From a virus: a stretch of DNA of 64,000 bases. The stretch spans positions 90,168 through 154,167 of the IMG/VR virus record IMGVR_UViG_3300042514_001858; one strand, written 5' to 3'. The first letter of the stretch is position 1. Each line of letters begins with the position of its first letter. A program made the translations under genes and the position numbers. The notes below the pieces were generated by a model, which saw only the letters and a list, made by a program, of their open reading frames with translations, ran no database searches and had not been told where the DNA came from. Of this stretch, positions 31,314 through 64,000 are shown piece by piece.

Positions 31314-33140
31314 ATGGCGGGTTCCGATAGTTCTTCTACACAATCTTCAAATAAATCCTACGTTAGTAATGACGGTAAGGGTTCCACTTTCGATAGGAAT
31401 ATGCAATCTTATTTGAAGAATCGTGGGAATTTTATTCAGCAAACTCCTGATGAAGCAAAGAATACAAAATATAAATATTTCCAAAAAATCGGGTTACGCA
31501 GACCTGAAGCAATTGCTAAGAACTCTGTAGCTCTTAATAACGACTGGAATAACACAGCGTTTTCCGCTATTTACCAAGACAAATCCTTTACGGATTTGAT
31601 GTATTCCCAAGCATCGGAAGAAAAACCAGGTCGTCTTAGAGACTACCGTATGATGGCTGCTTACTCTGAAGTGGCAGATGCTTTGGATGAAATTTGTGAT
31701 GAAACCATTAACGTTGATGAAGATGGGGAAATCGTAACTCTTGATTTCCGTAACGCTGATTTGGAATCAGAGAAAAAAGAGGAAATACAAAAAGAATTTT
31801 CTAAATTCTGTTCCATGTTGGATTTGGATGATAATGGATGGCATTATTTCCGACAATTTCTTGTTGAAGGTGAACTCTTTTTTGAACTTATTCTGAAAGA
31901 TGATTACATCAAACAAGGTGTTGTTGCCATTAAAAATCTTCCTGCTGATCAATTCGATCCTGTTTATGACAACATCCAGACGATGTTAGTCAAAGCATTT
32001 ATTTATAAGAAGCCTATTTTTTCTAGCATCGATAATAAAAAAGTTGAACGGTATGAATATATTCCATTTGAAAAGAACCAAGTTCTTTATGTAAATAGTG
32101 GACAATATAATGAAACAAAAGATTTTATCATTCCTTTCATTGAGAATTGCCGTAGAGCTTATAGACAGCTTTCGATGATCGAAGATTCTGTGGTTATCCA
32201 TAGAATGGTTCATGCACCTCTCCGTTTCCTTTTCAATGTGGATGTAGGTAGATTACCAGTTCCTCAAGCTGAAGCATATCTGAGAAAATTACAATCTCAA
32301 TATTGGTCTACCAAGACTTTCGATTTGGATCAAAGTGATGTCGTTAAAAAATATGCACCACAGTCTACTTTGGATTCTTTCTGGTTTGCTAAAAGACAAG
32401 GACAAGAAGCAACAACTGTTGAAACATTTGGTGGTCAACAATCAGATGGTAATATGGAGCCTCTAGATTGGTTCATCAAGAAACTTTATCGTTCTCTGAA
32501 GACTCCTACTTCTCGTTTGAATAATGAAACGGGATATAATGATGGGACAGAAATGCTTCGTGAAGAGCTTAAATTTGCGAAGATGATCATTCGTCAACAA
32601 CAAAGATTTGCTCAAGGCATCAAAAGAGCATTTGTCACTCATCTCAAATTCAAAGAAATGTTCGAAGAATATGATCTTTTCGAAGATAATATTCAAGTGG
32701 AATTTAATGTTCCGACGAATTTCTATGACATGAGAGAAAGTCAAAAGCTTGAATTAAAAATTAACACCTTTACCAGTATTACAAACAGTGAATTTGTCTC
32801 CAAAACCTTTGCTATGAAAAAATATTTGGATTGGAAAGATTCAGACATTCTTGCTAATCGTCACTTCCTGAGAAACGAAGCAGAGTTCCTATACGAAATT
32901 GAACAAATTAAAGCCAACGGACCTAACTGGAAAGAACTTGCAGCACAACAAGCTGAAGGTGCTGCGGGAGGAGAAGGTGGTGACATGAGCGACTTGGGTG
33001 GCGGTGGTGGTGGCGGTGGTGGCGTTCCAGACTTTGGAGGAGGAGGAGCCGCTATTAGTGGTGGAGAAGCTGATTTGGGCGGTGGCGAAGCACCTCCAGC
33101 AGAAGAAGCACCTCCAGCAGAAGAAGCACCACCAGTTTAA
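31314..33140 (+). CDS. gp20: Portal vertex protein
   Basis: YRMMAAYSEVADALDEI, IEDSVVIHR..HAPLR, DVGRLP..AEAYL, LYRSLKTPTSRL, REELKFAK. Confidence 0.95.
   Translation: MAGSDSSSTQSSNKSYVSNDGKGSTFDRNMQSYLKNRGNFIQQTPDEAKNTKYKYFQKIGLRRPEAIAKNSVALNNDWNNTAFSAIYQDKSFTDLMYSQASEEKPGRLRDYRMMAAYSEVADALDEICDETINVDEDGEIVTLDFRNADLESEKKEEIQKEFSKFCSMLDLDDNGWHYFRQFLVEGELFFELILKDDYIKQGVVAIKNLPADQFDPVYDNIQTMLVKAFIYKKPIFSSIDNKKVERYEYIPFEKNQVLYVNSGQYNETKDFIIPFIENCRRAYRQLSMIEDSVVIHRMVHAPLRFLFNVDVGRLPVPQAEAYLRKLQSQYWSTKTFDLDQSDVVKKYAPQSTLDSFWFAKRQGQEATTVETFGGQQSDGNMEPLDWFIKKLYRSLKTPTSRLNNETGYNDGTEMLREELKFAKMIIRQQQRFAQGIKRAFVTHLKFKEMFEEYDLFEDNIQVEFNVPTNFYDMRESQKLELKINTFTSITNSEFVSKTFAMKKYLDWKDSDILANRHFLRNEAEFLYEIEQIKANGPNWKELAAQQAEGAAGGEGGDMSDLGGGGGGGGGVPDFGGGGAAISGGEADLGGGEAPPAEEAPPAEEAPPV
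33087..33131 (+). repeat. 18-bp tandem repeat (EAPPAE) in the portal tail
   Basis: GAAGCACCTCCAGCAGAA, ~2.5 copies. Confidence 0.85.
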
Positions 33141-39683: not shown

Positions 39684-40115
39684 ATGAACGAACAAATAGA
39701 CGAAGAAATGACATCGCAGGAATATGAAAAATTCCTAACACAACGAGCAATCAAAGGTATCTACCATGCTGTAGTAACCTTTGAGGAATGCTATAGATTA
39801 TTTTGGGGCAGACAACCTGAAACGATCATCGCATCTTTAAACGAAAATGTTCCTAAAACATTAGCACGATTCGCTTCTAATACAGAAATTGGAAATGCTC
39901 TTAATTATCAAATGGCAAAAACAAAACACACTGTGCGTGTGCCTGTTACAATGCCAGAAGGATATGGTTTTGATGGAGAATGTTTTACTTATAACATACC
40001 CGTAGTGGCGACACCTGAACCAGAGATTATCATAGATCTAAATCCAGTTCTAGAGCCACCAGTATTAGATGTCATTGAATCAGAAGTTATTGTCGAAGAG
40101 CCAATGATACAGTAA
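39684..40115 (+). CDS. Hypothetical protein (possible fibre chaperone)
   Basis: 143-aa ORF directly after the fibre gene. Confidence 0.6.
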   Translation: MNEQIDEEMTSQEYEKFLTQRAIKGIYHAVVTFEECYRLFWGRQPETIIASLNENVPKTLARFASNTEIGNALNYQMAKTKHTVRVPVTMPEGYGFDGECFTYNIPVVATPEPEIIIDLNPVLEPPVLDVIESEVIVEEPMIQ

Positions 40116-40576
40116 TGGGTAATCTACCTTTAAAAAAAGATTCGAGATTTAAACAAGGATTTTTTGCCCCTAAAAATCCTCAAAAGTATATTGGTAAATT
40201 GGATAATATAATTTTTCGATCTGGTTTAGAATTGAAATTGTTTCGATGGGCAGATAATAATGTAAATGTTTTGGAATGGAATAGCGAAGAATTTACTATT
40301 CCTTATTTTGATAGTCTTCAAAGGAAAAATCGTAAGTATTTTATTGATGCTTACGTAAAAATAAAAGAAGGAGATAAAATTAAAAAATATCTTATAGAAG
40401 TTAAACCTTGGAAACAGACTCAAGAACCAAAAGCTACTAAAAATAAAAAGAAATCCAATCTGCTTTATGAACAAGTAGCATGGAAGAATAATTGTGATAA
40501 ATGGGCATTTGCCAAAGAATTCGCGAAGAAGCATGGCATGGATTTTATTATTATTACAGAAAAAGAATTAAATTAA
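40115..40576 (+). CDS. gp4: Head completion nuclease
   Basis: PKNPQKYIG, FRSGLE, WNSEE..IPY, YFID, LIEVKP, KWAFA, ITEKEL. Confidence 0.92.
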   Translation: MGNLPLKKDSRFKQGFFAPKNPQKYIGKLDNIIFRSGLELKLFRWADNNVNVLEWNSEEFTIPYFDSLQRKNRKYFIDAYVKIKEGDKIKKYLIEVKPWKQTQEPKATKNKKKSNLLYEQVAWKNNCDKWAFAKEFAKKHGMDFIIITEKELN

Positions 40577-40609: not shown

Positions 40610-41275
40610 ATGGCGTTGAAACTTAAATTAATCGCAGAAAATCCTGATGTGTTTGATAACTTTGAAGTTATCGAAGAACAATCCAATCGAAACAGTACAT
40701 CCAATCTTTATGTTAAAGGACCGTTCATCGGTTGCAATAGCGTGAATAAAAATAAAAGAATGTATAAACTTGATGATACGAGAACTGAAGTTCAAAGATA
40801 TATCAATGAGATGGTTCTTCCAGGTAGAGCGATGGGTGAGTTGAATCACCCTACTAGTGCTGATGTTAATCTGGAGAGAGCTTGCCATTTGGTAACAGAA
40901 TTGACTGAAGTTAATGATTATTTTGTTGGTAAAGCGAAAGTCTTGTCAACACCTACTGGTCAGATCCTCCGTGCGCTTATCAATGATGGTGTTAAAGTCG
41001 GTATGTCCACTCGTGCATTGGGACAATTGATGGAAAATAATGATTACAATCTAGTTCAAAATATGCACTTGGTAGCTATTGATGCTGTTGCAGATCCATC
41101 TTATCCAAAAGCATTCGTTAATGGTATTTTGGAAAGTAAAACATACGTTGTTGAACAAGACGGTTCTTTTGAAGAAGTATATGAAAATTTTGAAAAGTCT
41201 CTCAAAACTATTCCAAAGCATGATATTGAATCTTATCTTCGTAAACAAATCATAAAATTCATTAATTCTATTTGA
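40610..41275 (+). CDS. gp21: Prohead protease
   Basis: NKNKRMY, AMGELNHP, GKAKVLSTPTG, GMSTRALG, DAVADPS. Confidence 0.95.
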   Translation: MALKLKLIAENPDVFDNFEVIEEQSNRNSTSNLYVKGPFIGCNSVNKNKRMYKLDDTRTEVQRYINEMVLPGRAMGELNHPTSADVNLERACHLVTELTEVNDYFVGKAKVLSTPTGQILRALINDGVKVGMSTRALGQLMENNDYNLVQNMHLVAIDAVADPSYPKAFVNGILESKTYVVEQDGSFEEVYENFEKSLKTIPKHDIESYLRKQIIKFINSI

Positions 41276-42933: not shown

Positions 42934-44385
42934 ATGAATATCCCACAAACTGATTTAAATGGCTCAAAAATGCAACGCGCAGTCGCTAAATGGCGTAAAG
43001 TGCTGGACTATAGCTCGAACTCGATTCCTGCTATCCAGAACGAACACGTCTATAAGACAACCGCTATGCTGCTTGAGAACCAAGAACAGTGGTGCTTTCA
43101 AGAATCAAACAACGCTGGTAGTAACGGCGTTTTTGGCGCAACGTCTTCCATTGGCAATGGTATCGCTAACAGCGACTCCTATGCTGCTGGTGATGCTCGT
43201 TTGCCAAAGATTCTGATTCCTATGATTAGACGTACTTTCCCAGAATTGATTTCTAATGAAATCGTCGGTGTCCAGCCAATGGGCGGTCCTGTCGGACTCG
43301 CCTTCGCTCTCCGTTATGCTTATCAAGGCGAAACCCTTGGTGCAGACGGTGTTGATGGCAAAGCATTCACCTCTACTTCCCGTGGCAACCAGCCTTGGGA
43401 TCAGTATGCAGGTGGTACAGGTCTTCCGAACGACGAAATGGGCTATCAATTACTGGACACACGTTTCACTGGCACATCTGCTGGTTTCCTCTCTGGTCAT
43501 GCTGAGTGGACATTCGCAGATCAAGACCGTGGTATTGCTGAACTATTGAGTAATTACGAATTGACAGGTAAAATCCCTCAAATCGAACTCAAGTTTGACA
43601 AAACTGCTGTTGAAGCTGGGACACGTAGACTTGCAACTCGTTGGAGTGTTGAGTTGGAACAAGACATCAAAAACATGAACGGCATCGATATCGATGGAGA
43701 ACTTACGAATGCTATGTCGTATGAGATCCAAGCTGAAATCGACCGTGAAGTTGTGATGCGTATGATCCAAACAGCCTTTAATGCTGGTGCTGGCGCAGGT
43801 TTCTCCATCTGGAGTCCTGTTAGTGCGGATGGTCGTTGGACTGCTGAAAGAAATATTACCTTCTATCAACGCCTTATTATCGAAAGTGGTCGTATGGCTG
43901 CTCGTAACCGTAGAGGTGCCGCTAACTTTGTTATCGCCACTCCTCGCGTTTGCAGCATCCTCGAAATGCTTCCTGACTTTAAGGTTTACGAAATCAACGG
44001 AACCGTTTCGACGGCTGGTGTTGGTATCGCAAAAGTTGGTACTGTTGGTAGCCGCTGGACGGTTTATCGTGATACTCGGACTGAAGTTCAGAACACTTCA
44101 CTCTATAGCCCTAACTACTACTCTGGTCAAACCAGCGGTGTAGAATATGCGCTATTGGGTTACAAAGGTTCTGAATACTATGACACAGGTATTATTTACT
44201 GCCCATACATCCCGATTATGGTGCAACGCACAATTGGACCGAATGATTTCGCTCCTCGCGTTGGACTCATGACCCGTTATGGTATTGTAAACAATATCTT
44301 CGGTGCTAATCTTTATTATCACCTGATCATTGTCAAAGGTCTTGGTACTGCGTTTACACCTGGTTCTGTTAGCACTTACCTGTAA
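42934..44385 (+). CDS. gp23: Major capsid protein
   Basis: TAMLLENQE, IRRTFP, VGVQPM.GPVGLAFALR, EIQAEIDRE, YCPYIP, GLMTRYG. Confidence 0.97.
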   Translation: MNIPQTDLNGSKMQRAVAKWRKVLDYSSNSIPAIQNEHVYKTTAMLLENQEQWCFQESNNAGSNGVFGATSSIGNGIANSDSYAAGDARLPKILIPMIRRTFPELISNEIVGVQPMGGPVGLAFALRYAYQGETLGADGVDGKAFTSTSRGNQPWDQYAGGTGLPNDEMGYQLLDTRFTGTSAGFLSGHAEWTFADQDRGIAELLSNYELTGKIPQIELKFDKTAVEAGTRRLATRWSVELEQDIKNMNGIDIDGELTNAMSYEIQAEIDREVVMRMIQTAFNAGAGAGFSIWSPVSADGRWTAERNITFYQRLIIESGRMAARNRRGAANFVIATPRVCSILEMLPDFKVYEINGTVSTAGVGIAKVGTVGSRWTVYRDTRTEVQNTSLYSPNYYSGQTSGVEYALLGYKGSEYYDTGIIYCPYIPIMVQRTIGPNDFAPRVGLMTRYGIVNNIFGANLYYHLIIVKGLGTAFTPGSVSTYL

Positions 44386-44473: not shown

Positions 44474-44998
44474 ATGCAATTATTCAATCAATTTTTCCAA
44501 ATCCACGAAAGTCTTGATAATCCATACCCTTGGAAGAATACGTTCAAAACCGAAGAAGTCGTAGATGATTGGGATGATAGTGGAGATGAATATCCCAAAG
44601 ATGTTCTTACACCAACTCAAATAATACATTTCAAAACAGATGAAGGTGTTCCATACATTTGGTATGCAAAGCAAAATAGATACAACGATAAATATTGGGA
44701 AATTGCATTCGGGATTGTTGAAAAAGATAAAGGAGATGGTGGCTATGAAACAAATATTGAAAAAACGGGAACAGGCAATGCATTTCGTGTATTCGCTACA
44801 GTAATTGAAATTACAAATTATTTCGTGGAATGGGATGGAGATAATTATGAAGTTCAAAATTTAACCTTTTCATCTAAAGGTAATAACCGAACATCTCTTT
44901 ATAAAAAATATCTAGTTCCCCGAATTGAAAATTTTGAAATATCTGATGAACAGAAAAATGGTGATGAAACAGAAATCCATCTTCAACGTAATTTCTAA
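44474..44998 (+). CDS. Late hypothetical protein, candidate internal head protein
   Basis: TAAATA-N6-ATG; leader MQLFNQFFQIHES; TGTGNAFRVFATV. Confidence 0.75.
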   Translation: MQLFNQFFQIHESLDNPYPWKNTFKTEEVVDDWDDSGDEYPKDVLTPTQIIHFKTDEGVPYIWYAKQNRYNDKYWEIAFGIVEKDKGDGGYETNIEKTGTGNAFRVFATVIEITNYFVEWDGDNYEVQNLTFSSKGNNRTSLYKKYLVPRIENFEISDEQKNGDETEIHLQRNF

Positions 44999-54925: not shown

Positions 54926-55203
54926 GTCTTTGGTTTCAATCTTTTGTATTGATTGGTGCTTGTCTGATCCTGAAATACGGATCAATTCTAAATCCTATTC
55001 GAGATCGTTTGATTAAAATGAAATTCTTTGAGAAATTGTTTAAGTGTTGCATGTGTCTTGGATTTTGGGTGGGATGTTTCTTTGGAATGTTTTGGACAGG
55101 CACACCATTCTTGATTCCCCTATGGGGATTCTACGCATCTTCCATTTGTTGGTTTGCTGATTATTTCACCATGGTGATTGACAAATATTTGGGGAATGAT
55201 TAA
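54922..55203 (+). CDS. Small membrane protein (DUF1360-like)
   Basis: LFKCCMCLGFWVG, hydrophobic segments. Confidence 0.6.
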   Translation: MSLWFQSFVLIGACLILKYGSILNPIRDRLIKMKFFEKLFKCCMCLGFWVGCFFGMFWTGTPFLIPLWGFYASSICWFADYFTMVIDKYLGND

Positions 55204-55211
55204 ATAATAGA

Positions 55212-55826
55212 ATGCAGTCATTCTATAAATTTTTTTGGGAAGCATTCTCAGACATTGGTAAATTATCACCTGAACAATTAAAAATCAGTAGAAAACTAAC
55301 ACCTGAAGATTCTGGAAAATTTAAAAAAGTTGATTGGCGATCATTTTATAAAATCATCAATGCTTACATGGAATCAGATACTAAACGTGCTGACCCTGAA
55401 CACAAAGAACATGAATGGTTTAAAGATATTAAAAATAACATCACCATTTACAAACCAGAAGAATACGCAGAGATGGAATGTTTTATCGGACCAAACAATA
55501 CCAGCGGATATTGCATCAAAAAGGGTGATGAATTGGTTTCGGTTTTTTCTGGCATACAATCTTCGGGGGATGCGGCAGTAAAAAGTGCTATTAAAAATGG
55601 TGTTAGACGTTTAGATTGTTTTGCGGAACAAGATGGTGATGGTAATATCATACCAAAAAAATTATTCAAACTCTACAGTCGAAATGGTTTTGTTATTGAC
55701 AAAGATAAAAACGATGATACAATGCCTTATCCAGTGTTCAATGGTATTTCCTATGGTGTTGACGACGATGGCAACATCGACAGAAATTCCAAAACAGTGG
55801 TTGTTTACATGAAATTAGCACGATGA
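55212..55826 (+). CDS. Late protein with a possible GNAT-like domain
   Basis: TAAATA-N5-ATG; leader MQSFYKFFWEA; ELVSVF..., RLDCF, LFKLYSRNGF. Confidence 0.6.
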   Translation: MQSFYKFFWEAFSDIGKLSPEQLKISRKLTPEDSGKFKKVDWRSFYKIINAYMESDTKRADPEHKEHEWFKDIKNNITIYKPEEYAEMECFIGPNNTSGYCIKKGDELVSVFSGIQSSGDAAVKSAIKNGVRRLDCFAEQDGDGNIIPKKLFKLYSRNGFVIDKDKNDDTMPYPVFNGISYGVDDDGNIDRNSKTVVVYMKLAR

Positions 55827-56107
55827 CAGTAATTTATCCAAGAGAACATATGATTAACGCTCCGAATAGTGATGGAGTAGAAGTTATTTTTACAGGCGAT
55901 CCAATTCCCCTTCCATCAGGAATGTATGATACAGTATTGATGATTGTTGAACATGAGCCTAAAATGGTTGATTTGAATTACGAATCGTCATATAAGTCCT
56001 GTATGCATACTGTAAAGACTATGATTGATTGTAATTTTCAATCTAGAAATTTGGAATTATTAATAAAAAAATTTAAAACAATAGAAGATATTTGGAATTA
56101 TGAGTGA
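55823..56107 (+). CDS. Hypothetical protein
   Basis: 94-aa ORF overlapping both neighbours. Confidence 0.55.
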   Translation: MTVIYPREHMINAPNSDGVEVIFTGDPIPLPSGMYDTVLMIVEHEPKMVDLNYESSYKSCMHTVKTMIDCNFQSRNLELLIKKFKTIEDIWNYE

Positions 56108-57031
56108 TGAATTAAACATAAGAGAATTATATAATAAAATTCTGGAAAAACGTGCAGCAGCAAGAGGAATTGTTTTATCGGAAAACGTAAAAATACCAGT
56201 CACTAGAAGTAGTCCTGATAAACTCGAATTTGATGGTATTGTTAAAAATTTTGACGACAACACCAGACCATTTTGTTTTATTGGGGAAAATTCAGAATTG
56301 ATTGGAACAATAAACCACAATGAAGGTACACATCCGTATATATTTTCTGCTTTTACTAAGTTAGCAGCAGCTTTAAAAATTATACCTTTTCCAGCAATGA
56401 TGAGTTATCTGCAATCAATGTATTCAGATACTACAATTAAAGATGTTAAAAAGATTCTTAAAGACGATGATGTGTCTTTCTTGGGTAAATTTGACATGTC
56501 AAACTTGGAATTTTTTGCAAAGAAACAGAAATCAGGAATGACAACAGACACTAGACGGAATACCAGAGCGGGTAGAATATGGTTTTCGGTCGCATCTAAA
56601 ACATTGAAAAAAAATGTCAATGTAATTGTTTTTTGGTGTAGAGAACGTCAATTGAAACCAGATGATTTAAAAAGTTTGAATAAATATTTTAAATTGGGTG
56701 ATTTTTTCTGGTCTGCAACTGATTCAAGTCAGTTCAATTATTTTGGTGACAATTATAGAGAGAGCGAATCTGGTGAGACTAAAGAACTCAAAAGTAAAAT
56801 CTATCCCGAATTGTCACACGATGAGATTGTTGATATTCTAATGAGAGCGCATACTGGATTTAATATGACACCATATGAAAAGAAAATTGTATGGGAATTT
56901 AGAGGATTTGATCCATCGGACTTGAAACAGGTTACGGGAGGGTATCCTTCTGCTGCTGAATATGGATATCGTAAAAAATTAAGTGAGAGTGTCGATGATT
57001 AGTTAAATTGTAATTTTCAATCTAGAAATTT
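56028..57031 (+). repeat. 25-bp direct repeats flanking the 56100 gene
   Basis: ATTGTAATTTTCAATCTAGAAATTT at 56028-56052 and 57007-57031. Confidence 0.9.
56100..57002 (+). CDS. Hypothetical protein
   Basis: 300 aa; leader ELNIRELYNKILE. Confidence 0.75.
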   Translation: MSDELNIRELYNKILEKRAAARGIVLSENVKIPVTRSSPDKLEFDGIVKNFDDNTRPFCFIGENSELIGTINHNEGTHPYIFSAFTKLAAALKIIPFPAMMSYLQSMYSDTTIKDVKKILKDDDVSFLGKFDMSNLEFFAKKQKSGMTTDTRRNTRAGRIWFSVASKTLKKNVNVIVFWCRERQLKPDDLKSLNKYFKLGDFFWSATDSSQFNYFGDNYRESESGETKELKSKIYPELSHDEIVDILMRAHTGFNMTPYEKKIVWEFRGFDPSDLKQVTGGYPSAAEYGYRKKLSESVDD

Positions 57032-57057
57032 AAAGCAATAGAAGAAATTTGAATAAT

Positions 57058-57756
57058 ATGAAAAATAAAGACAATAATGAAATTGGAGATATTTACACTG
57101 ACTTACTACAAGAAAGTGGATTAAATAGAGTTCGTAATAAAATTCAGAAACATGCTGCTGGAATTGTTACAGCATTTAGGAATGATAAATCATACAAAGA
57201 AAATATGCTCAACAATAAAAAAATATTAGCATATCTCCAATCGAAAAGATATTCCATTACCACAGTATTGGGAACATTTATCGAAGATTTTATCGATGAT
57301 GATAAGCGTGAGGAAATTCTAGCTAGAAAAGGTGGTGGTGATGCTTATAATCCAGTTGAAAAACATGTTAATGAGCGTTCGTTTTTCGTAGTCAATGACA
57401 AAGTAGAAGGCGATGATGATGGGGAACTGGCGAAAGATTTATATAAAATGGGTAAAGCTTTTAATCAAGATTCAGTCTTAATCATTCCAGCGGGTGGAAT
57501 AGGTGTTTATTTATGGGGAACTTCCGATGGAGAAGACGCATATCCTGGTTTAGATGTTAAACAAACCGTTGGTGAAGGAAAATTCGGTAAACATTCAGGT
57601 CCGTTCCTATCCAAAGTTAAAGGACGTGATTTTGCATTTGAAAAAGAACGTGATTTTGTATTTGAAGAAGTTGGACAACCTAAAACCATTAATGGCAAAA
57701 GAAGTCGATATCTATTACTGAAAGAGATTCAAAAAATTGTAGATAACTTAAAATGA
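57058..57756 (+). CDS. Conserved phage hypothetical protein (DUF3293-like)
   Basis: Leader EIGDIYTDLLQES; GIVTAFR, ERSFFV, FNQDSVL. Confidence 0.7.
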   Translation: MKNKDNNEIGDIYTDLLQESGLNRVRNKIQKHAAGIVTAFRNDKSYKENMLNNKKILAYLQSKRYSITTVLGTFIEDFIDDDKREEILARKGGGDAYNPVEKHVNERSFFVVNDKVEGDDDGELAKDLYKMGKAFNQDSVLIIPAGGIGVYLWGTSDGEDAYPGLDVKQTVGEGKFGKHSGPFLSKVKGRDFAFEKERDFVFEEVGQPKTINGKRSRYLLLKEIQKIVDNLK

Positions 57757-58517
57757 ATAACTTTAAAACTTTTTTTGAAAGATTCGCAAATGGGGAATTA
57801 CCTCCTGTAAATAAAAGAAGAAAAATTCTTTTAGAAGCTCAATATGTTTACCCATCCTCTGGTGATAAAGCTATCATGGATTTGTATGCGCTATATGCTC
57901 TATGGTGGGAATTGGGGGGTGGCAAATCAGCATACAATTACGAAGATACCAATGTTCGTAATTATAAAGTAAGAGAAAAAGTTGATCGATATTTTGAAGA
58001 AGCATTGGTAGTTATAGCAAATACTCTTCTACAGGAATCTAAAGAAGCGATTGCTGATGAAGCAGAAAATATTTTCGATGAATATTTAATACCTTCAAAA
58101 GAAGTAGTTACATGGTTTAAAGAGAATAACCTCCTCCCAAAATTAGCAAAAGCACACAACGAAGGAAAAGGTGGTATATGGTTTGATGTTTTTGATTATA
58201 ACGATACTACTAGTATTATGTCTGCTCCTTTTTGGGAAAAAAATGCTAATTTATATGGTGGTAAAAAATGGGCTGAAATCACTCAAGCAGTGAAAGAATT
58301 AGACAATGCCATCCGCAGAGAAAAAGTATCCGCTCTAATGGGTTCATTTGACAAGTTGATGGACTTGGAACACAACACGGGAAATCTTTATTCTAAACTT
58401 AATAAAATGAAAGTGTCAAAAGATACTTTAGATTTGAGAGCAGGATTTGGATCACCAAAAGATTTCCAACCATATGTCAGTGATCAAGTTGCAAAATTGA
58501 TTAATTTAATTAGATAA
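57753..58517 (+). CDS. Hypothetical protein, candidate internal head protein
   Basis: Leader MNNFKTFFE; YGGKKWAEI...DLEHNTG. Confidence 0.75.
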   Translation: MNNFKTFFERFANGELPPVNKRRKILLEAQYVYPSSGDKAIMDLYALYALWWELGGGKSAYNYEDTNVRNYKVREKVDRYFEEALVVIANTLLQESKEAIADEAENIFDEYLIPSKEVVTWFKENNLLPKLAKAHNEGKGGIWFDVFDYNDTTSIMSAPFWEKNANLYGGKKWAEITQAVKELDNAIRREKVSALMGSFDKLMDLEHNTGNLYSKLNKMKVSKDTLDLRAGFGSPKDFQPYVSDQVAKLINLIR

Positions 58518-58528
58518 TAAATAATACT

Positions 58529-58753
58529 ATGAAAAAATTCCAAGATTTCTTTAATGACTACTTCAAGAAAGTTGAAAAAAAAGATCTTCCTAAACCAGAG
58601 GTTTCCAAAGGAGAAGAAGTAGAACAAGAACATATTGCTCCTTCCAAGAGAAAAACAAAGTTAGGAAAGAAGTTGGCGAAAACGATTGCTAAACAGCATG
58701 TGGAAGAAGATCCAAAATATTACTCCAAGATGGAGAAACAGCACAAAGATTAA
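58529..58753 (+). CDS. DUF5661-like small protein
   Basis: KGEEVEQEH...IAKQHVEEDPKYYSKM; TAAATA-N5-ATG. Confidence 0.7.
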   Translation: MKKFQDFFNDYFKKVEKKDLPKPEVSKGEEVEQEHIAPSKRKTKLGKKLAKTIAKQHVEEDPKYYSKMEKQHKD

Positions 58754-58762
58754 ATTATTATT

Positions 58763-60181
58763 TTAATGATTAAATGATTCGGTGTAAGGATCTACCACAA
58801 CTTTTCTTGCGGTTATATCTACTGGTTTTCTGATCATGACATCATCAGTCATAGGTGATTTATTTGTAGATGAATGCATATTGTCTTTTATTTTATTAAT
58901 ACCTCTTCTGAGAAAAGAAAGAGTTTCTGTTCTACTTTTATCAGTCATCCCCGCCAAATATTTCAAAGTGTTGGTATCTAATTTTTCCGTGATCGCCATC
59001 ATATCAGATGGATTGATCTTTGTCAATGCTTGAATTGTATCTTTTCTGGATAATGTTTTATTTTTGATTGAATCTACAATCACTTGTCGTTGTTGTTTGG
59101 TCATCATACTTGGTATGTATCCTCCAACGCTTTCGATGATCTGCTCAACAGCTTTATCCCATTTCTGATCAAAGTCTTCTACGTATTCCTTCATTAACAT
59201 TTCATATTGTTGATCGAATGATTCTTTTTTGATGAAGGGTTCTATATCTTTAAAAATGGTGTAGTGATCTTTACTAACATTTCTTCCATCCATTTTAGAA
59301 CCTTTCAATCTCTTATTGGTATAATCTTCCAATCTATCTTTGGTTCTTTTATTTGGTGCGTATGCTGTTTGATATTTGATATTATCTCCTTTTTTAGTTG
59401 CTATTACTTTATGCTCGTCTCTCGCTTTTTCTTCTTTAGAAAACTTGCCAGCATATAAAAATTTATGCTCAACAATTTTACACCAATCGTCCCACAAAAT
59501 TTGTGACATTGGACTACTATATTCAATATATGATTCTAAATTTTTCCTACCACCTTTGGTCAATTTACCATGCTTATCTCTGGCGGGACTAGCCATATTT
59601 AATCCAGTGACATCATATGATTTGACATTAATACTATCGAAACATCCTAAATCACCACTTATCAGTTGCACTACAAAAGCAGCTTTAGCTTTTGCTAAAC
59701 CTTTTATGGTTGTAACGTAGTCGAAAAGTTCAAAAACATCGTCTATTCTTTTGACAACATTTTCATAAATGGTTTGTCTGTTATCATAAACATCATAAAA
59801 TTGTGATAATCTTTGAGTCGATAATCCAGTTTCTTTATGCTTACCAGTCATTTGATGACCCAGAAACGATGGTGGTTCCACATTTCTATTAACCACTAAT
59901 CGATTCCCCTTTCTCACAACTGCTTTCGTATAAAACCACTCAATAAATTTTGGGAAACCATGTAACACTTCTGCCCAAGGTGTTTGCATAGTATAAAATA
60001 CAAAGGCGAATACCATCGCTAAATTATCTGGATTTGATAATGCGAATGCTTTTATAAGAGGATTGTCATCTTTGAAACCACTGTCTTTGTCATCTCTCTT
60101 TATACCTAAAGGAATAGTGACTTTTGGTTGCCAAATGACACTCTCCATCAATTCCTTATACAATTTATTAAAGCTACGCAT
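58763..60181 (-). CDS. Protein with an HhH DNA-glycosylase-like domain
   Basis: IKGLAKAKAAFVVQL...LGCFDSIN; TAAGTA-N5-ATG; leader MRSFNKLYKELMES. Confidence 0.55.
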   Translation of the reverse strand: MRSFNKLYKELMESVIWQPKVTIPLGIKRDDKDSGFKDDNPLIKAFALSNPDNLAMVFAFVFYTMQTPWAEVLHGFPKFIEWFYTKAVVRKGNRLVVNRNVEPPSFLGHQMTGKHKETGLSTQRLSQFYDVYDNRQTIYENVVKRIDDVFELFDYVTTIKGLAKAKAAFVVQLISGDLGCFDSINVKSYDVTGLNMASPARDKHGKLTKGGRKNLESYIEYSSPMSQILWDDWCKIVEHKFLYAGKFSKEEKARDEHKVIATKKGDNIKYQTAYAPNKRTKDRLEDYTNKRLKGSKMDGRNVSKDHYTIFKDIEPFIKKESFDQQYEMLMKEYVEDFDQKWDKAVEQIIESVGGYIPSMMTKQQRQVIVDSIKNKTLSRKDTIQALTKINPSDMMAITEKLDTNTLKYLAGMTDKSRTETLSFLRRGINKIKDNMHSSTNKSPMTDDVMIRKPVDITARKVVVDPYTESFNH

Positions 60182-60189
60182 TATAATAC

Positions 60190-60663
60190 TTAATATAATT
60201 CGTCCTGAATAGTAGTTAAATACTCCCCATCGATCTCTTCAACCATCTTAGATTCAACCACACTGTCAGGATTGATGATGATAATGGAAAGATTCTCATT
60301 TCTGATATCACCTTCTCCTGTATTTTTGTAGAAAGCAATATCATAATCACCCAAATCTTTTACATAATCATATCCATGATCTGTTCCATCATCAGGTAGT
60401 AACTTGGGATACACTTTATCAATTCTAATAGTTAATTCATAAAGATAATACTTGTCGAATCTCCCTTCGTCATTGATCATATAATCAGCACGAATCAGAG
60501 CTTGTTGCTTAGTTCCCGCATGAGAACCTGAAGTATAGTCGTTCTTATTGGGACGAGCCGAAGAACGATACACTTTAAGATAGTGAGTATTCGAGATATC
60601 TCGTAGCTTACTATTCGGAGATAGCTCTTGGATATCATAGAAAGATTCTAGAAAAGTTCTCAT
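60190..60663 (-). CDS. ADP-ribosyltransferase-like protein
   Basis: VYRSS, HAGTKQQA, YLYELTI, YDIAFYKNTGE, SIIIINP; start moved to ATG 60663 (TAAATA-N5). Confidence 0.45.
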   Translation of the reverse strand: MRTFLESFYDIQELSPNSKLRDISNTHYLKVYRSSARPNKNDYTSGSHAGTKQQALIRADYMINDEGRFDKYYLYELTIRIDKVYPKLLPDDGTDHGYDYVKDLGDYDIAFYKNTGEGDIRNENLSIIIINPDSVVESKMVEEIDGEYLTTIQDELY

Positions 60664-60750
60664 AAAAATATTTAATCTATTGACAGGGGAAGGAAATATT
60701 TCATACCATGGTGGAACATATGGAGAAATATCCATAATGTGATTAATATT

Positions 60751-61395
60751 TTAAGCTCTTAGCTTGTGACCAATGAAATCGAACACTTCCATTTTATCAT
60801 CGTCTATTTCAGTATTAATCATTTCCTGTTTATTAACTCTTAAACCAACCATCTTATCAAATCCATAAGTTCTCCATTTCACATCAGTTTCAAATTTACC
60901 ACCTGAAGATGGATACATATATTGTTTGGCTTCTTCCTTATCAATTTCTTTTAAGTTTCCCTGATTATCTCGAATGACATAAAACGTTACGTTATTCTTA
61001 ATTAGATTAGAATTAAACATGATTAAAGATAATCCTCTCTTAGAAATCCCCACACTACGGGAGAGTCTTTCTCCTACAGTATTACTTGACTGTGCTTCAA
61101 AATCCCCTTCATCACCCCTTTTAGTTAATTGTCTATTAACTTCTTTTTGGTATTCCCCCAATTCTCCAATCGTTTGAGTGATTTTATATAATTGTTGGTG
61201 AGGGAATTGTTTTTCATATTTTCTTGGTGTGGTAACTGCGGTAAAGCTAAAAGGGATTGTGGTGTTTGGTTTCTCTTTATCTGCCTTAATTACAAAGTCC
61301 ATCATACCTTTAATATCCATAGGTATTGATCCTTCTGCAAAACCATATGCCATTTCCATGTAAATATTCTCCAATATGATACGATCTTTGTTCAT
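60751..61395 (-). CDS. Late hypothetical protein
   Basis: Start moved to ATG 61395 (TAAATA-N5); leader KDRIILENIYMEMA. Confidence 0.75.
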   Translation of the reverse strand: MNKDRIILENIYMEMAYGFAEGSIPMDIKGMMDFVIKADKEKPNTTIPFSFTAVTTPRKYEKQFPHQQLYKITQTIGELGEYQKEVNRQLTKRGDEGDFEAQSSNTVGERLSRSVGISKRGLSLIMFNSNLIKNNVTFYVIRDNQGNLKEIDKEEAKQYMYPSSGGKFETDVKWRTYGFDKMVGLRVNKQEMINTEIDDDKMEVFDFIGHKLRA

Positions 61396-61494
61396 GATAA
61401 TATTTAATATAATAAAGTTAAATATTTCTTTTGAAAAAAATTTTTGAGGGGCAACCACCGAAACGATATATTCCAATTATGATTAAATAATAGA

Positions 61495-62349
61495 ATGAAC
61501 CAAGACGAACTTTCCCTACAACAAATCTACCAAGAAATGGCTTTGACCAATCTACAAAAGATTGGAAAGTGGGAAGACAAAAAGAATCGTCATGGTTATG
61601 ATAAAGCATCAATTGGTATCCTATCTTCTCCCGCAGGACTGAAGAAATTGGAAAATACTTTCAATCGCATTGGTAATTGGGATTTTAATTTATATTTCGT
61701 AAAAAAAGCGGGAGCATGGAAAGAAGCAGAAAAAGGTCTAGTGACTCCCGAATTTGTAAAAGAACATCTGGGTCTGGAAGTAGGTAAAGATTTCCCCCAA
61801 CCAGAGAACGACCAAATCACAGTATTCTTCACCAATAATGCAGCAGCAGAAAAAGTCCCTCTGACTCCATGGACAATTGCCCATAGAATTGGACATAGCT
61901 TCGCAGCAACATTTAGGAGAAATAATGATTTAAATTATATTAATAGAAACATATCAAACATCCTAAAAAATCTTTTTGAACAAGCTTACAATATAAACAC
62001 AAGTAATTCCAGAGACTTACGCTATTCATCTGATTATTATGTAAGAGACTTCTTCCAAAAGATCGGTAAGTTCCGTAGCGCAAGAATGGGTAAGCTCGTA
62101 AGACCCGCAGAATTCTATCACGAAGCATTTGCCTATTGGTTACTACATGATGGAGAATTGACTTTCAATGACCCGCCAAAAATTCTACAAGACAGTAACA
62201 AACAAGCATGGGGTAAATCAACAGCACGTAATTACAGATTACAAGATGAAGATGAAGCTTGGGAATATATTAATCAATTCAAATGGGCTTTAGATGAAAT
62301 GTTCAATGTCATGATCGGTAAGCACATGGGAACAATGTCCATTATGTGA
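61495..62349 (+). CDS. Late protein with a variant zincin-like motif
   Basis: TPWTIAHRIGH...EFYHEAFA; leader DELSLQQIYQEMA. Confidence 0.55.
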   Translation: MNQDELSLQQIYQEMALTNLQKIGKWEDKKNRHGYDKASIGILSSPAGLKKLENTFNRIGNWDFNLYFVKKAGAWKEAEKGLVTPEFVKEHLGLEVGKDFPQPENDQITVFFTNNAAAEKVPLTPWTIAHRIGHSFAATFRRNNDLNYINRNISNILKNLFEQAYNINTSNSRDLRYSSDYYVRDFFQKIGKFRSARMGKLVRPAEFYHEAFAYWLLHDGELTFNDPPKILQDSNKQAWGKSTARNYRLQDEDEAWEYINQFKWALDEMFNVMIGKHMGTMSIM

Positions 62350-62361
62350 TTAAATAATAGG

Positions 62362-63756
62362 ATGATATCTTTCCACGAATACTTTTTAATAAGAGAAGCA
62401 AAATTCTCCCAATCAAAAAAGGTAATCCCCATAACAAAATTACCTATGTTCTCTGTTTATCTTTTCAAAGATGATGTAGATAAAGTAGAGAGCATAAATG
62501 AATTGAAAGAAAAAATAACGAACGCTTGCACGGAAGCAAGAAAGATAATCACCAAGATGGGTTTCCCTTCCATGCATTCCAACATATTGATCAAGGATTT
62601 GTCAGAGGAAGTGAATTGGGTATCGGGGGGAGGAGTTGGGGGTTATGCTCATCGCAAAGGAAAATACATGACAGTATCCTTAAATCAAATCAATGATCCA
62701 AATTATCTAATCAAAGTGATAGTCCATGAATGGGCGCACCTATGGATGTTCAACAATTCCGAAGGATTTAAAAGAGCTGTCAGCGAATACTACAATACTC
62801 TATTAAACCAATACAAAACAAATTTCTCCACCGCTCAAAAACAGAAGGAAAAGGAACCATTCAAAAATATTTATAAGTATACTAATTTTGAAAAAACAGA
62901 AGAATTATTGGGCAGTGGTTATAACAGTTTAATTTGGAACGAAGTTGTTAAAGATATGATGTATACAGTCAGAAATATCTATCAAAGTTATGTTTCCAAC
63001 AAGTATGATGAAGACGGTTCCCCATGGAAAATAAATGACCAAGAATTTTTTAAAGTCTGGAGAGACAACTTCAAAAGTAAAACCAGAAAATTAATATTAA
63101 AAATAATTAATGACATGCAAAACAAATCACAATTTTGGCATGTTGATATGGGAATTTATAATAAACAACTTAATTATCTAAGCAATGCCCTGACAAAGTT
63201 ATTTTATGACAATCTAATAAAGAATATAAAACGTTCAGTGGAAGCGGATGAGAGTGATTGGAATTGGGCGAAGGAAGATGGAGAAGATTGGGTATCAGAA
63301 TTTGAATCCATTTCTGATTATCTATTAAGTGAAACAAAACATAACGAGAATTTTATATTCGCTAATGATGATTCTTATACGGAAGTTAGTAATAAATTTG
63401 ATGAATTAGATACTCATAGATTGGGTATTGTTGTCCTTATAATCAATTTCGTATTCAATATCTTTGAAATTACTATAAATCAAAAAAACTTCCCCCAATC
63501 AGGAGATAACCTTGCAGGAAAGGAACAATCTCCATTTAGGGAACAGATGAAAGATCTGGTAAAGTGGGTAGATTCTTATGGAATGTCAAATAATGATGAG
63601 TTATGGGCAACGGGAGTGGAGGAATTTCTCAAGCTCCCTTCAAACCATAAAAAAGCTATATTAAAATTAATGGGAACCCAAGGAGAACGACCTCTACCCA
63701 ATCGGAGATATAAAAAATATATCAAAACGATTGATACCGATGGTCTTACACTTTAA
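62362..63756 (+). CDS. Zincin metallopeptidase-domain protein
   Basis: VGGYA, IVHEWAH, YGMSNNDELWA; leader MISFHEYFLIREA. Confidence 0.7.
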   Translation: MISFHEYFLIREAKFSQSKKVIPITKLPMFSVYLFKDDVDKVESINELKEKITNACTEARKIITKMGFPSMHSNILIKDLSEEVNWVSGGGVGGYAHRKGKYMTVSLNQINDPNYLIKVIVHEWAHLWMFNNSEGFKRAVSEYYNTLLNQYKTNFSTAQKQKEKEPFKNIYKYTNFEKTEELLGSGYNSLIWNEVVKDMMYTVRNIYQSYVSNKYDEDGSPWKINDQEFFKVWRDNFKSKTRKLILKIINDMQNKSQFWHVDMGIYNKQLNYLSNALTKLFYDNLIKNIKRSVEADESDWNWAKEDGEDWVSEFESISDYLLSETKHNENFIFANDDSYTEVSNKFDELDTHRLGIVVLIINFVFNIFEITINQKNFPQSGDNLAGKEQSPFREQMKDLVKWVDSYGMSNNDELWATGVEEFLKLPSNHKKAILKLMGTQGERPLPNRRYKKYIKTIDTDGLTL

Positions 63757-63948
63757 ATCATTGTTCTCCTTACAAAAAAAATATTTTTTGAAAGAGACGC
63801 GAATATAGGAAAATTCCAATTTTTCCATAAAAAAAATTTTTTTTCAATAGGTGGATTTCCAAGAATTTTATATAAAATAATTTAGCCATGGCATCCTACC
63901 CCCCTCCCCCCCTCCACTTAAAAACTAAGCAAATCCAAACAGACCCCC

Positions 63949-63980
63949 CTAGTTTTTAAACACACCCTCTTAAAAACTAG
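63949..63980. repeat. 11-bp inverted repeat in a C-tract region
   Basis: CTAGTTTTTAA-N10-TTAAAAACTAG. Confidence 0.8.
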
Positions 63981-64000
63981 ACTACAGGTAAATAAAAAAA

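Follow-up and report, generated by a model that had tools for sequence, protein, structure and literature searches.

Why should unrelated, enzyme-like proteins encoded side by side in a phage genome begin with the same few residues? The question is raised by the final 64 kb of a 154-kb virus contig from IMG/VR (IMGVR_UViG_3300042514_001858), which is ~75% complete by estimate; this 64-kb stretch is called the window throughout. The last 8.5 kb ahead of the contig end (window 55212-63756) form an island of genes that a first-pass annotation of the sequence had described as a toolkit of enzymes delivered with the phage DNA. From sequence comparison and by analogy with phage T4, we regard enzyme cargo that is loaded into the head and injected into the next host as the best explanation of this island, and put its probability at roughly 0.68.

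About 10 consecutive genes in mixed orientation had been described, and this was borne out: 11 open reading frames (ORFs) on both strands tile 55212-63756. Nearly all were said to bear leaders, and 10 of the 11 proteins indeed start with one of two kinds of short peptide, six of type A (pattern M-x-x-F-x-x-F/Y/L-F/Y-..-E) and four of type B (..[ILV]-Y-x-x-[ILM]..E). The genes, named below by the window coordinate of their start, are listed here with their lengths in amino acids (aa) and the residues that follow the presumed leader end.

55212-55826, plus strand: GNAT-like protein, 204 aa; type A leader MQSFYKFFWE, then A
55823-56107, plus strand: leaderless ORF, 94 aa
56100-57002, plus strand: protein without recognisable family, 300 aa; type B leader MSDELNIRELYNKILE, then K (..IRELYNKILE)
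57058-57756, plus strand: S-AdoMet-lyase-like protein, 232 aa; type B leader ..IGDIYTDLLQE, then S
57753-58517, plus strand: protein without recognisable family, 254 aa; type A leader MNNFKTFFE, then R
58529-58753, plus strand: small basic DUF5661-like protein, 74 aa; type A leader MKKFQDFF..
58763-60181, minus strand: HhH-GPD-like N-domain plus C-terminal module; type A leader MRSFNKLYKELME, then S
60190-60663, minus strand: ADP-ribosyltransferase (ART)-fold protein, 157 aa; type A leader MRTFLESFYDIQE, then L
60751-61395, minus strand: protein without recognisable family, 214 aa; type B leader MNKDRIILENIYME, then M (..LENIYME)
61495-62349, plus strand: HRIGH protein (HRxGH...E family), 284 aa; type B leader ..LQQIYQE, then MAL
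62362-63756, plus strand: HExxH (HEWAH) protein with a variable insert of ~230 aa, 464 aa; type A leader MISFHEYFLIRE, then AKF

Five overlapping or abutting plus-strand genes (55212, 55823, 56100, 57058 and 57753) are thus followed by 58529 on the same strand, by three minus-strand genes, and by 61495 and 62362 on the plus strand. For two of the minus-strand genes the start was moved from that of the longest ORF (60735 and 61476) to the promoter-proximal, leader-bearing ATG (60663 and 61395 respectively). The claim that most of the genes are individually promoted held as well, with TAAATA or TAAGTA 5 nucleotides (nt) before the ATG in 7 of the 11: TAAATA ends exactly 5 nt 5′ of the ATG at 55212, 58529, 60663, 61395, 61495 and 62362, and TAAGTA takes this place at 60181. 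The other four genes (55823, 56100, 57058 and 57753) are probably co-transcribed, since each overlaps or abuts the gene upstream. No Shine-Dalgarno sequence was seen at the TAAATA-N5-ATG starts; with the element only 5 nt from the ATG and no ribosome-binding site, the late mRNAs may therefore be leaderless or near-leaderless. TAA(A/G)TA also precedes head genes, e.g. the protease and scaffold candidates, and from its likeness to T4 TATAAATA we infer that it is a late promoter. A 19-nt box, ATGATTAAATAATAGAATG, recurs at three promoter-bearing starts; as (A/G)TGATTAAATAATAG(A/G)ATG it lies at 55196-55214, 61479-61497 and 62346-62364, two copies being identical and the third having two mismatches. 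Sigma-70 promoters and intrinsic terminators were rejected as organising elements, both occurring at background level with no enrichment.

The association of leaders with the promoter-like element was quantified on ORFs called in the genome and in ~100 related loci (numbered L011, L014 and so on below). Among ORFs with TAA(A/G)TA 4-6 nt before the ATG (n = 219), 61 began with type A (28%) and 35 with type B (16%), as against 2.9% and 1.0% of the 2473 ORFs without the motif (Fisher odds ratio 19, p 8e-61). Internal methionines, taken as controls, gave 2.3% and 0.9%, equal to the rate in the motif-less ORFs. A hydrophobic-x-Glu ending, which is present in nine of the 10 island leaders, was found at positions 9-14 in 46 of 53 promoter-linked type A leaders and in 9 of 132 regex-matched internal controls (p 8e-27). 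The 53 unique type A leaders of the genome and its relatives are closely alike: Phe occupies position 4 in 52 of them, F/Y/L position 7, and F/Y position 8 in 45, while the first Glu mostly falls at positions 9-12 and is preceded, two residues earlier, by a hydrophobic residue in 48 of 52.

What follows the leader, by contrast, is highly diverse. Clustering of the mature parts of promoter-linked leader proteins yielded about 40 unrelated families. Conversely, within the families of 60663, 55212, 61495 and 62362 there are orthologues with a type A leader, a type B leader or none, the Glu boundary being kept. The leader is also the low-confidence end of the two AlphaFold2 (AF2) models made, those of the 60663 and 61495 proteins. 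Judged by these alignments and models, it is a detachable module on the mature domains. Signal peptides were considered and rejected, as the leaders are acidic and amphipathic and have no hydrophobic core.

A short address of this kind, the capsid targeting sequence (CTS), has been known in T4 since 1996. The T4 sequence is MKTYQEFIAE (PMC8442874); residues 4 and 7 govern targeting, residues 8 and 10 processing, and gp21 cuts after L/I-x-E (PMC9026906). Type A agrees with it at positions 4, 7, 8 and 10 (aromatic at 4, hydrophobic at 7 and 8, Glu at ~10), whereas type B shares only the hydrophobic-x-Glu ending. A protease of the gp21 family is encoded outside the island, in a head module of T4 type that has the following landmarks.

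31314-33140: portal protein, T4-type head module
40610-41275, plus strand: prohead core serine protease, T4 gp21 family (Pfam PF03420 Peptidase_S77, E 1.4e-28)
42934-44385: gp23-like capsid protein, head module

The Peptidase_S77 gene thus has the portal gene on one side and the capsid gene on the other. The protease itself begins MALKLKLIAE, with an I-x-E site at residue 10 that resembles the LIE-9 site of T4 gp21 (PMC9026906), and is on sequence grounds the presumed leader-processing enzyme. Ribonucleotide reductase and ThyX are also encoded in the window. The capsid protein is at most ~33% identical to that of any cultured phage, its best matches being cyanophage gp23, which makes the phage a remote member of the T4 superfamily; as far as these sequences tell, it is an uncultured, very divergent T4-like phage.

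Together with the T4 precedent, these features suggest the following course of events. Each gene or short operon would be switched on with the structural genes by a TAAATA element of T4-late type, 5 nt before the ATG. The N-terminal propeptide of 10-20 residues, type A or B, would dock the protein onto the prohead scaffolding core as the T4 CTS does, and the gp21-family prohead protease would then cut it off after hydrophobic-x-Glu. The mature domain would stay among the DNA, be ejected with the genome into the next host and act there before phage genes are expressed. Late transcription, targeting to the prohead core, leader cleavage, retention in the head and ejection are all steps that we infer, as are all enzymatic activities and targets; host takeover and counter-defence are the likely roles of the cargo. 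As encoded in the window, this cargo comprises an ART-fold, a GNAT-like, an S-AdoMet-lyase-like, an HhH-GPD-like, an HExxH zincin-like and an HRxGH...E protein, and four proteins without recognisable family. General searches contributed little to these assignments: a PADLOC scan gave nothing useful, a Pfam search of eight island proteins at E ≤ 10 gave nothing useful beyond weak matches, and profile and sequence searches of the PDB with all island families gave no significant match.

For the ART-like protein at 60190-60663 the label is supported at the level of the fold by an AF2 model, Foldseek and VIA-align. Its family has 71 homologues. Among the 34 that were aligned (49-87% identical) the mature domain varies little, while the N-terminus may be type A, a lengthened A-like version, type B-like (MGYIDDIGLLYEKIL..) or leaderless. 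The protein carries the motif VYRSS...SGSHAGT...GEG, with G46, H48, G50, E117 and S126 invariant in the family and R33, S34, S35 and E76 nearly so, and of these E117, S126, R33, S34, S35 and E76 lie on or beside core strands of the model (pLDDT 89.4, from the 34-sequence alignment). Foldseek placed MbcT, ParT, RES-Xre, pertussis toxin S1, PARPs and exotoxin A among its top matches (best E 4.6e-3, TM 0.52). With VIA-align the two best were the catalytic domain of diphtheria toxin (Z 7.6 over 126 residues) and ParT (Z 7.5), followed to about rank 35 mostly by ART-fold proteins; the scores are moderate, and the two methods agree. No Pfam or PDB sequence match was found for 60663.

In shape the protein resembles MbcT (6fkg), ParT (6d0h), RES-Xre (9r35) and diphtheria toxin (1dtp), with TM ~0.5, Z 6.2-7.6 and 110-126 residues aligned. 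It is similar in size to these proteins (~150-190 aa), and on our own reading of the family alignment its R33, E76 and S126 would follow the order of the R-E-S signature. In contrast, sequence identity to these toxins is just 7-15%, and the 60663 gene has no antitoxin-like gene next to it but a phage late-gene context and an address leader. The model supports an ART fold, nearest in shape to the RES/ParT and diphtheria-toxin-type catalytic domains. T4 offers a parallel in Alt, its packaged ART (PMC5512222, PMC9026906).

Two proteins had been pointed out for zincin-like motifs. In the family of 62362 the motif HEWAHLWMF is invariant (H122, E123, H126), and so are W402, Y406, G407, E413, W415 and T417 of a C-terminal block, W..SYG.S..E.WAT..E.F; the protein thus combines HExxH with a downstream Glu (E413), as gluzincins do. 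The Pfam matches were weak and all below cut-off: YgjP-like (E 0.023) and SprT-like (0.059) over the HExxH region, and Peptidase_M90 (E 0.036, profile positions 189-229) over the C-terminal block. PF18818 found nothing on the genome, nor did a PDB profile search with 62362. A paralogue of 235 aa (G000:80391-81098) retains both conserved blocks and lacks the ~230-residue insert. Every leader in the family ends I/L/V-x-E before x-(K/R)-F, and the L094 homologue has an extra N-terminal domain resembling ART-PolyVal, below threshold (E 3.5e-6; score 28.3 bits, cut-off 31.2). From its conserved motifs 62362 is plausibly a gluzincin. At the C-terminus it runs on for 24 residues past the end of its 81-94% identical homologues (L082:3910-5232 and L083:10001-11323), in which the frame closes at an earlier stop that the tblastn alignments cross.

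With 61495 the motif stood (H130-H134) but the label of a canonical zincin did not: an invariant Arg replaces the catalytic Glu, so the protein fails the HExxH test, and its fold matches are weak. The family is large, with 977 representative clusters at E ≤ 1e-3 (clustered at 50% identity), and has no Pfam model. W..AHRxGH and E206 are invariant in it, as is R131 in 70 diverse members. The AF2 model (pLDDT 93.3) has a gluzincin-like layout, namely a sheet, a helix with H130-R131-x-G-H134 and, further on, a helix with E206. The only matches to extend across it were to the catalytic domain of anthrax lethal factor (Z 3.8, 151 residues) and PPEP-1 (Z 3.3), both M34 zincins, and to a putative Bacteroides metallopeptidase (Z 3.1); VIA-align against 48,161 PDB representatives gave nothing above Z 4.2, and an ESM Atlas shape search returned only the protein's own viral cluster. 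Elsewhere the family is fused to a PolyA_pol-type nucleotidyltransferase, dCMP deaminase or PcfJ (proteins P0116-P0265). These fusions suggest a nucleotide- or RNA-directed activity, which by sequence and model would sit on a zincin-like scaffold. Some orthologues begin at MAL.., past the predicted cut, and the L104 homologue has a type A leader and a DUF5661-like domain fused in front.

A comparison of gene content in related phages, which the annotation had proposed, showed that the position of the locus is kept and that its cargo differs. In L011, L014, L083, L100 and L102 it lies in the same place, after homologues of the small genes 54728 and 54922. An ART, the pair of DUF5661-like and HRxGH proteins, and a nucleotidyltransferase or its partner domain recur; the rest varies. 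Between the homologues of 56100 and 58529, for example, L011 has nothing, L083 has a Kinase-PolyVal gene (E 5e-36) with a type B leader, and the window has 57058 and 57753. Leader-bearing cargo of the relatives includes CCA-type nucleotidyltransferases with HD (and in some cases NUDIX) domains and PARP-like proteins, and fused forms occur in L083 (968 aa), L094 (620 aa) and L104 (354 aa). By analogy with T4, this is probably a hypervariable late-gene locus that encodes head-packaged cargo. The thyX gene was rejected as a synteny anchor, as most of the 80 thyX loci belong to other phages without leader-bearing genes nearby. Y-H-(G/A/I)-T was noticed soon after the leader in four further proteins (L096:473-1237, L100:10856-11686, L089:11326-12168 and L084:6490-7320), one with a weak PARP match (E 2.9e-4); the motif suggests that the clade has more ART cargo, of the H-Y-E type.

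The remaining island genes are assigned less firmly. For 55212, which had been called GNAT-like, a motif-A-like stretch was confirmed (ELVSVFS..SSG.A....AIKNG, conserved in the family), and the family assignment is weakly supported by the sequences of its relatives: 14 of 34 members have subthreshold matches to PF12746 GNAT_acetyltran (best E 9e-4), while the window copy has no Pfam match and PF12746 run on the genome found nothing. The protein belongs to phrog_2563, a PHROG without assigned function, and has 38 homologues. Its orthologues begin with type A, with type B (..IANLYSEMLVE) or with different short forms, or lack a leader, and always have an invariant Glu before AF.D.GKLSPE. The leaderless 55823 has ATGA overlaps with both neighbours, is kept beside the 55212 homologue in L011, L014 and L083, and gave no family match. 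No Pfam, PHROG or PDB match was found for 56100, which is 56-81% identical to its homologues in the same three loci. The gene is flanked by a direct repeat, of which the 3′ end of 55823 (56028-56094) is copy 1 and 57007-57051 copy 2 (25 nt identical, ~47 nt at 81%). The repeat marks the slot at which the gene content differs among the relatives, and it is likely to be a recombination scar of cassette exchange.

The 57058 protein matches Pfam PF23780 S-AdoMet_lyase with 37.6 bits against a cut-off of 28, over profile positions 2-50 of 133 only, as well as phrog_30877 and phrog_2226. No relative turned up in the IMG/VR scan, and phmmer found no solved SAM lyase in the PDB. This lyase match is absent from the first-pass annotation. 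Neither 57753 nor 60751-61395 gave a convincing family match, and both are absent from the related loci examined; a PDB match of 57753 to a designed PPR protein (E 3.4e-5) was rejected, as it contains no significant stretch and was treated as compositional. The small 58529 protein scored 25.3 bits with PF18905 DUF5661, just under the 27-bit cut-off, and its leader-bearing relatives reached E 1.7e-8; its isoelectric point (pI) is 9.5. In L102 and L103 its homologue adjoins that of 61495, and in L104 the two are fused.

The gene at 58763-60181 had been linked to HhH proteins. The motif (IKGLAKAKAAF...GCFDS) is there, and a language-model search agrees with it: an ESM Atlas feature search returned viral clusters of HhH-GPD or 8-oxoguanine glycosylase type at 0.93-0.94, with PF22175 in 14-44% of their members. 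Three residues of the motif segment in the N-domain (about residues 1-320) do not vary, G161, K166 and D182, the Lys and the Asp being 16 positions apart. Hidden Markov model (HMM) support failed, however: no HhH match was obtained with PF22175 on the genome, in Pfam scans of nine N-domain homologues or in a PDB profile search, and an HhH glycosylase stays a lead for this reason. A second leader-like segment lies at residues about 322-340 (window 59160-59220), where SFDQQYEMLMKE is followed by YVEDFDQKW and then by a C-terminal module of ~130 aa. The same segment forms the N-terminus of stand-alone, leader-bearing CCA-type nucleotidyltransferases in L011 (13492-15012), L100 and L102 (8859-10373), and the junction in fused forms (L083:4366-7272); in relatives the N-domain is fused to PolyA_pol, HD and NUDIX domains, e.g. 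in the 968-aa protein of L083. Because its junction is a stand-alone N-terminus, 58763-60181 looks like two fused cargo genes with the address kept as a linker, and the sequence suggests that the internal leader is a retained fusion junction which the protease could cut. Taken together, the fold supports one of the five enzyme labels of the annotation; two more are plausible, another is no more than a lead, and for the last the motif that defines the family is missing.

Could the shared N-termini be explained without delivery into the next host? They might act in the message, as a translation or mRNA-stability signal (downstream-box-like) of leaderless late transcripts that encode ordinary late cytoplasmic enzymes, and leaders do co-occur with a promoter-like element 5 nt before the ATG and no Shine-Dalgarno sequence. 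Yet 123 of the 219 ORFs with that element are leaderless, and the codons of the conserved Phe at position 4 (TTT:TTC 34:18) follow genome usage (1558:976), so that the signal appears to lie in the peptide rather than in the mRNA. Moreover, the residues that replace one another in the leader are chemically similar (F/Y/L), 56100, 57058 and 57753 bear leaders without having promoters of their own, and the hydrophobic-x-Glu ending has no obvious nucleotide rationale; we consider a signal in the mRNA very unlikely. It is also quite unlikely that the proteins are late accessory enzymes which never leave the cell that makes them and there, for instance, modify DNA or virions, exclude superinfecting phages or time lysis, their shared N-terminal helix serving in regulation or oligomerisation or marking them for degradation. 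Maturation could indeed draw on GNAT, zincin and nucleotidyltransferase activities. Against this reading, however, the motif fits the T4 CTS at each position, and its ending is the cleavage motif of a phage-encoded protease; likewise, the leader lies outside the folded domain in the models, and its absence from some orthologues would be odd for a functional part of an enzyme.

A third explanation accepts loading into the prohead and takes the proteins to be structural, whether scaffold-core or DNA-condensing, like IPII and IPIII of T4 or the inner body of phiKZ, with relic or incidental enzyme motifs. Leader-bearing genes do occur in and beside the head module (e.g. 44474-44998, after the capsid gene), several island proteins have no enzyme signature, and 58529 is small and basic. 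However, the putative catalytic residues are invariant among diverse homologues (60663 H48/E117/S126; 62362 HExxH/E413; 61495 H130/R131/H134/E206). The hypervariability of the locus among close relatives fits accessory arms-race genes better than structural parts, and cargo of the relatives belongs to conflict-associated families (Kinase-PolyVal, ART-PolyVal-like). A purely structural role is thus unlikely in our view, and injected enzyme cargo remains the explanation that we prefer.

Several points nevertheless weigh against injected cargo. Type B has no verifiable documented counterpart in T4, and because the capsid protein is only ~33% identical to those of cultured T4-like phages, carrying T4 rules over to this phage is an extrapolation. 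It has no cultured relative: in 50,697 phage records neither the region (megablast) nor the 60663 and 62362 proteins (tblastn) had a match. Except for the ART fold and the Pfam S-AdoMet-lyase match, the enzyme assignments lie below curated thresholds. Within the island 55823 is leaderless, a clean hydrophobic-x-Glu site is missing from the first 30 residues of 58529, and the mature domains, with a pI of 4.6-9.5, are not uniformly basic as the internal proteins (IPs) of T4 are. Finally, the p-values of the leader statistics are inflated because homologous sequences were counted as independent, although the effect sizes are still large.

With T4 the locus has in common a gp21-family protease, late-promoter-like elements and unrelated mature domains behind one address, and it varies between relatives as do the IP genes of T-even phages (PMC3012670, PMC9026906). 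The set is larger here, with 10 members in the island, at least ~20 in the 154-kb partial genome and ~40 families in a handful of relatives. The cargo is mostly enzyme-sized rather than small and basic, type B is interchangeable with type A, there is one internal leader-like junction, and unlike that of T4 the system is known from its genes alone. In phiKZ- and SPN3US-like giant phages, propeptides of many head-internal proteins are likewise cut after Glu by a gp21-related protease and the proteins ejected (PMC5694885, PMC9026906); cleavage there follows S/A-x-E and no short T4-type address has been defined, in contrast to the T4-like address and hydrophobic-x-E found here.

The annotation had likened the island to an unpacked polyvalent protein. 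The leaders, the protease, the cleavage endings, the swapping of leaders and the PolyVal domains of relatives speak for an injected toolkit of this kind. The repertoire overlaps with that of the polyvalent proteins (Iyer et al. 2017, PMC5512222) in ART, zincin-like metallopeptidase, GNAT, NUDIX and kinase domains, and in both the genes lie among late or virion genes and delivery along with the DNA is predicted. The window genes, however, are mostly separate and single-domain, each with its own address peptide, rather than carrying two or more effector domains per polypeptide; only 58763-60181 has two modules, and no window protein matched the MPTase-PolyVal (PF18818) or ART-PolyVal (PF18760) models. 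Processing is proposed to be by a prohead serine protease here and by an embedded metallopeptidase there.

Should the leaders prove to be genuine capsid addresses, the set of proteins which an uncultured lineage delivers before phage gene expression could be listed from its DNA alone. That list would be dominated by enzymes rather than small DNA-binding proteins (ART-fold, GNAT-like, S-AdoMet-lyase-like and two zincin-like proteins in the window, kinases and tRNA-end repair enzymes in relatives), would offer testable candidates for pre-emptive counter-defence and host takeover, and would link the one-address, many-cargo design of T4 to the polyvalent proteins of other phages. The principle is already known from T4; the value of this island lies in how broad its cargo is, in two leader classes that can stand in for each other and in the particular folds. 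A bolder picture is possible but doubtful, in which the two leader classes form an address code from which the injected proteome of the clade could be read, and tagged genes and fused polyvalent-type proteins are two states of one toolkit. Neighbouring cargo genes would fuse and keep the internal leader as a junction (as in 58763-60181 and the 968-aa protein of L083), to be cut inside the head into separate effectors again, and the HRxGH family (~1000 clusters), repeatedly fused to domains that modify nucleotides and RNA, would be an unrecognised enzyme family of non-peptidase chemistry.

Some minor observations concern the surroundings of the island. Immediately downstream of the capsid gene, 44474-44998 encodes a type A leader-bearing protein of 174 aa, and its homologues (L084:9450-9974 and L086:4619-5143) lie directly upstream of a homologue of the 62362-type zincin. 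An ORF with a TnsA-like endonuclease N-terminal domain (40115-40576, Pfam E 1.3e-20) lies a short way upstream of the prohead protease gene, inside the head module, and may be a homing or mobile endonuclease. Beyond the island, the genes of the relatives have a different upstream motif (..CTGTTACTACC ATG). The contig end itself (63757-64000) has poly-C runs and repeated AAAAACTAG-like motifs, which resemble the other promoter class of this genome.

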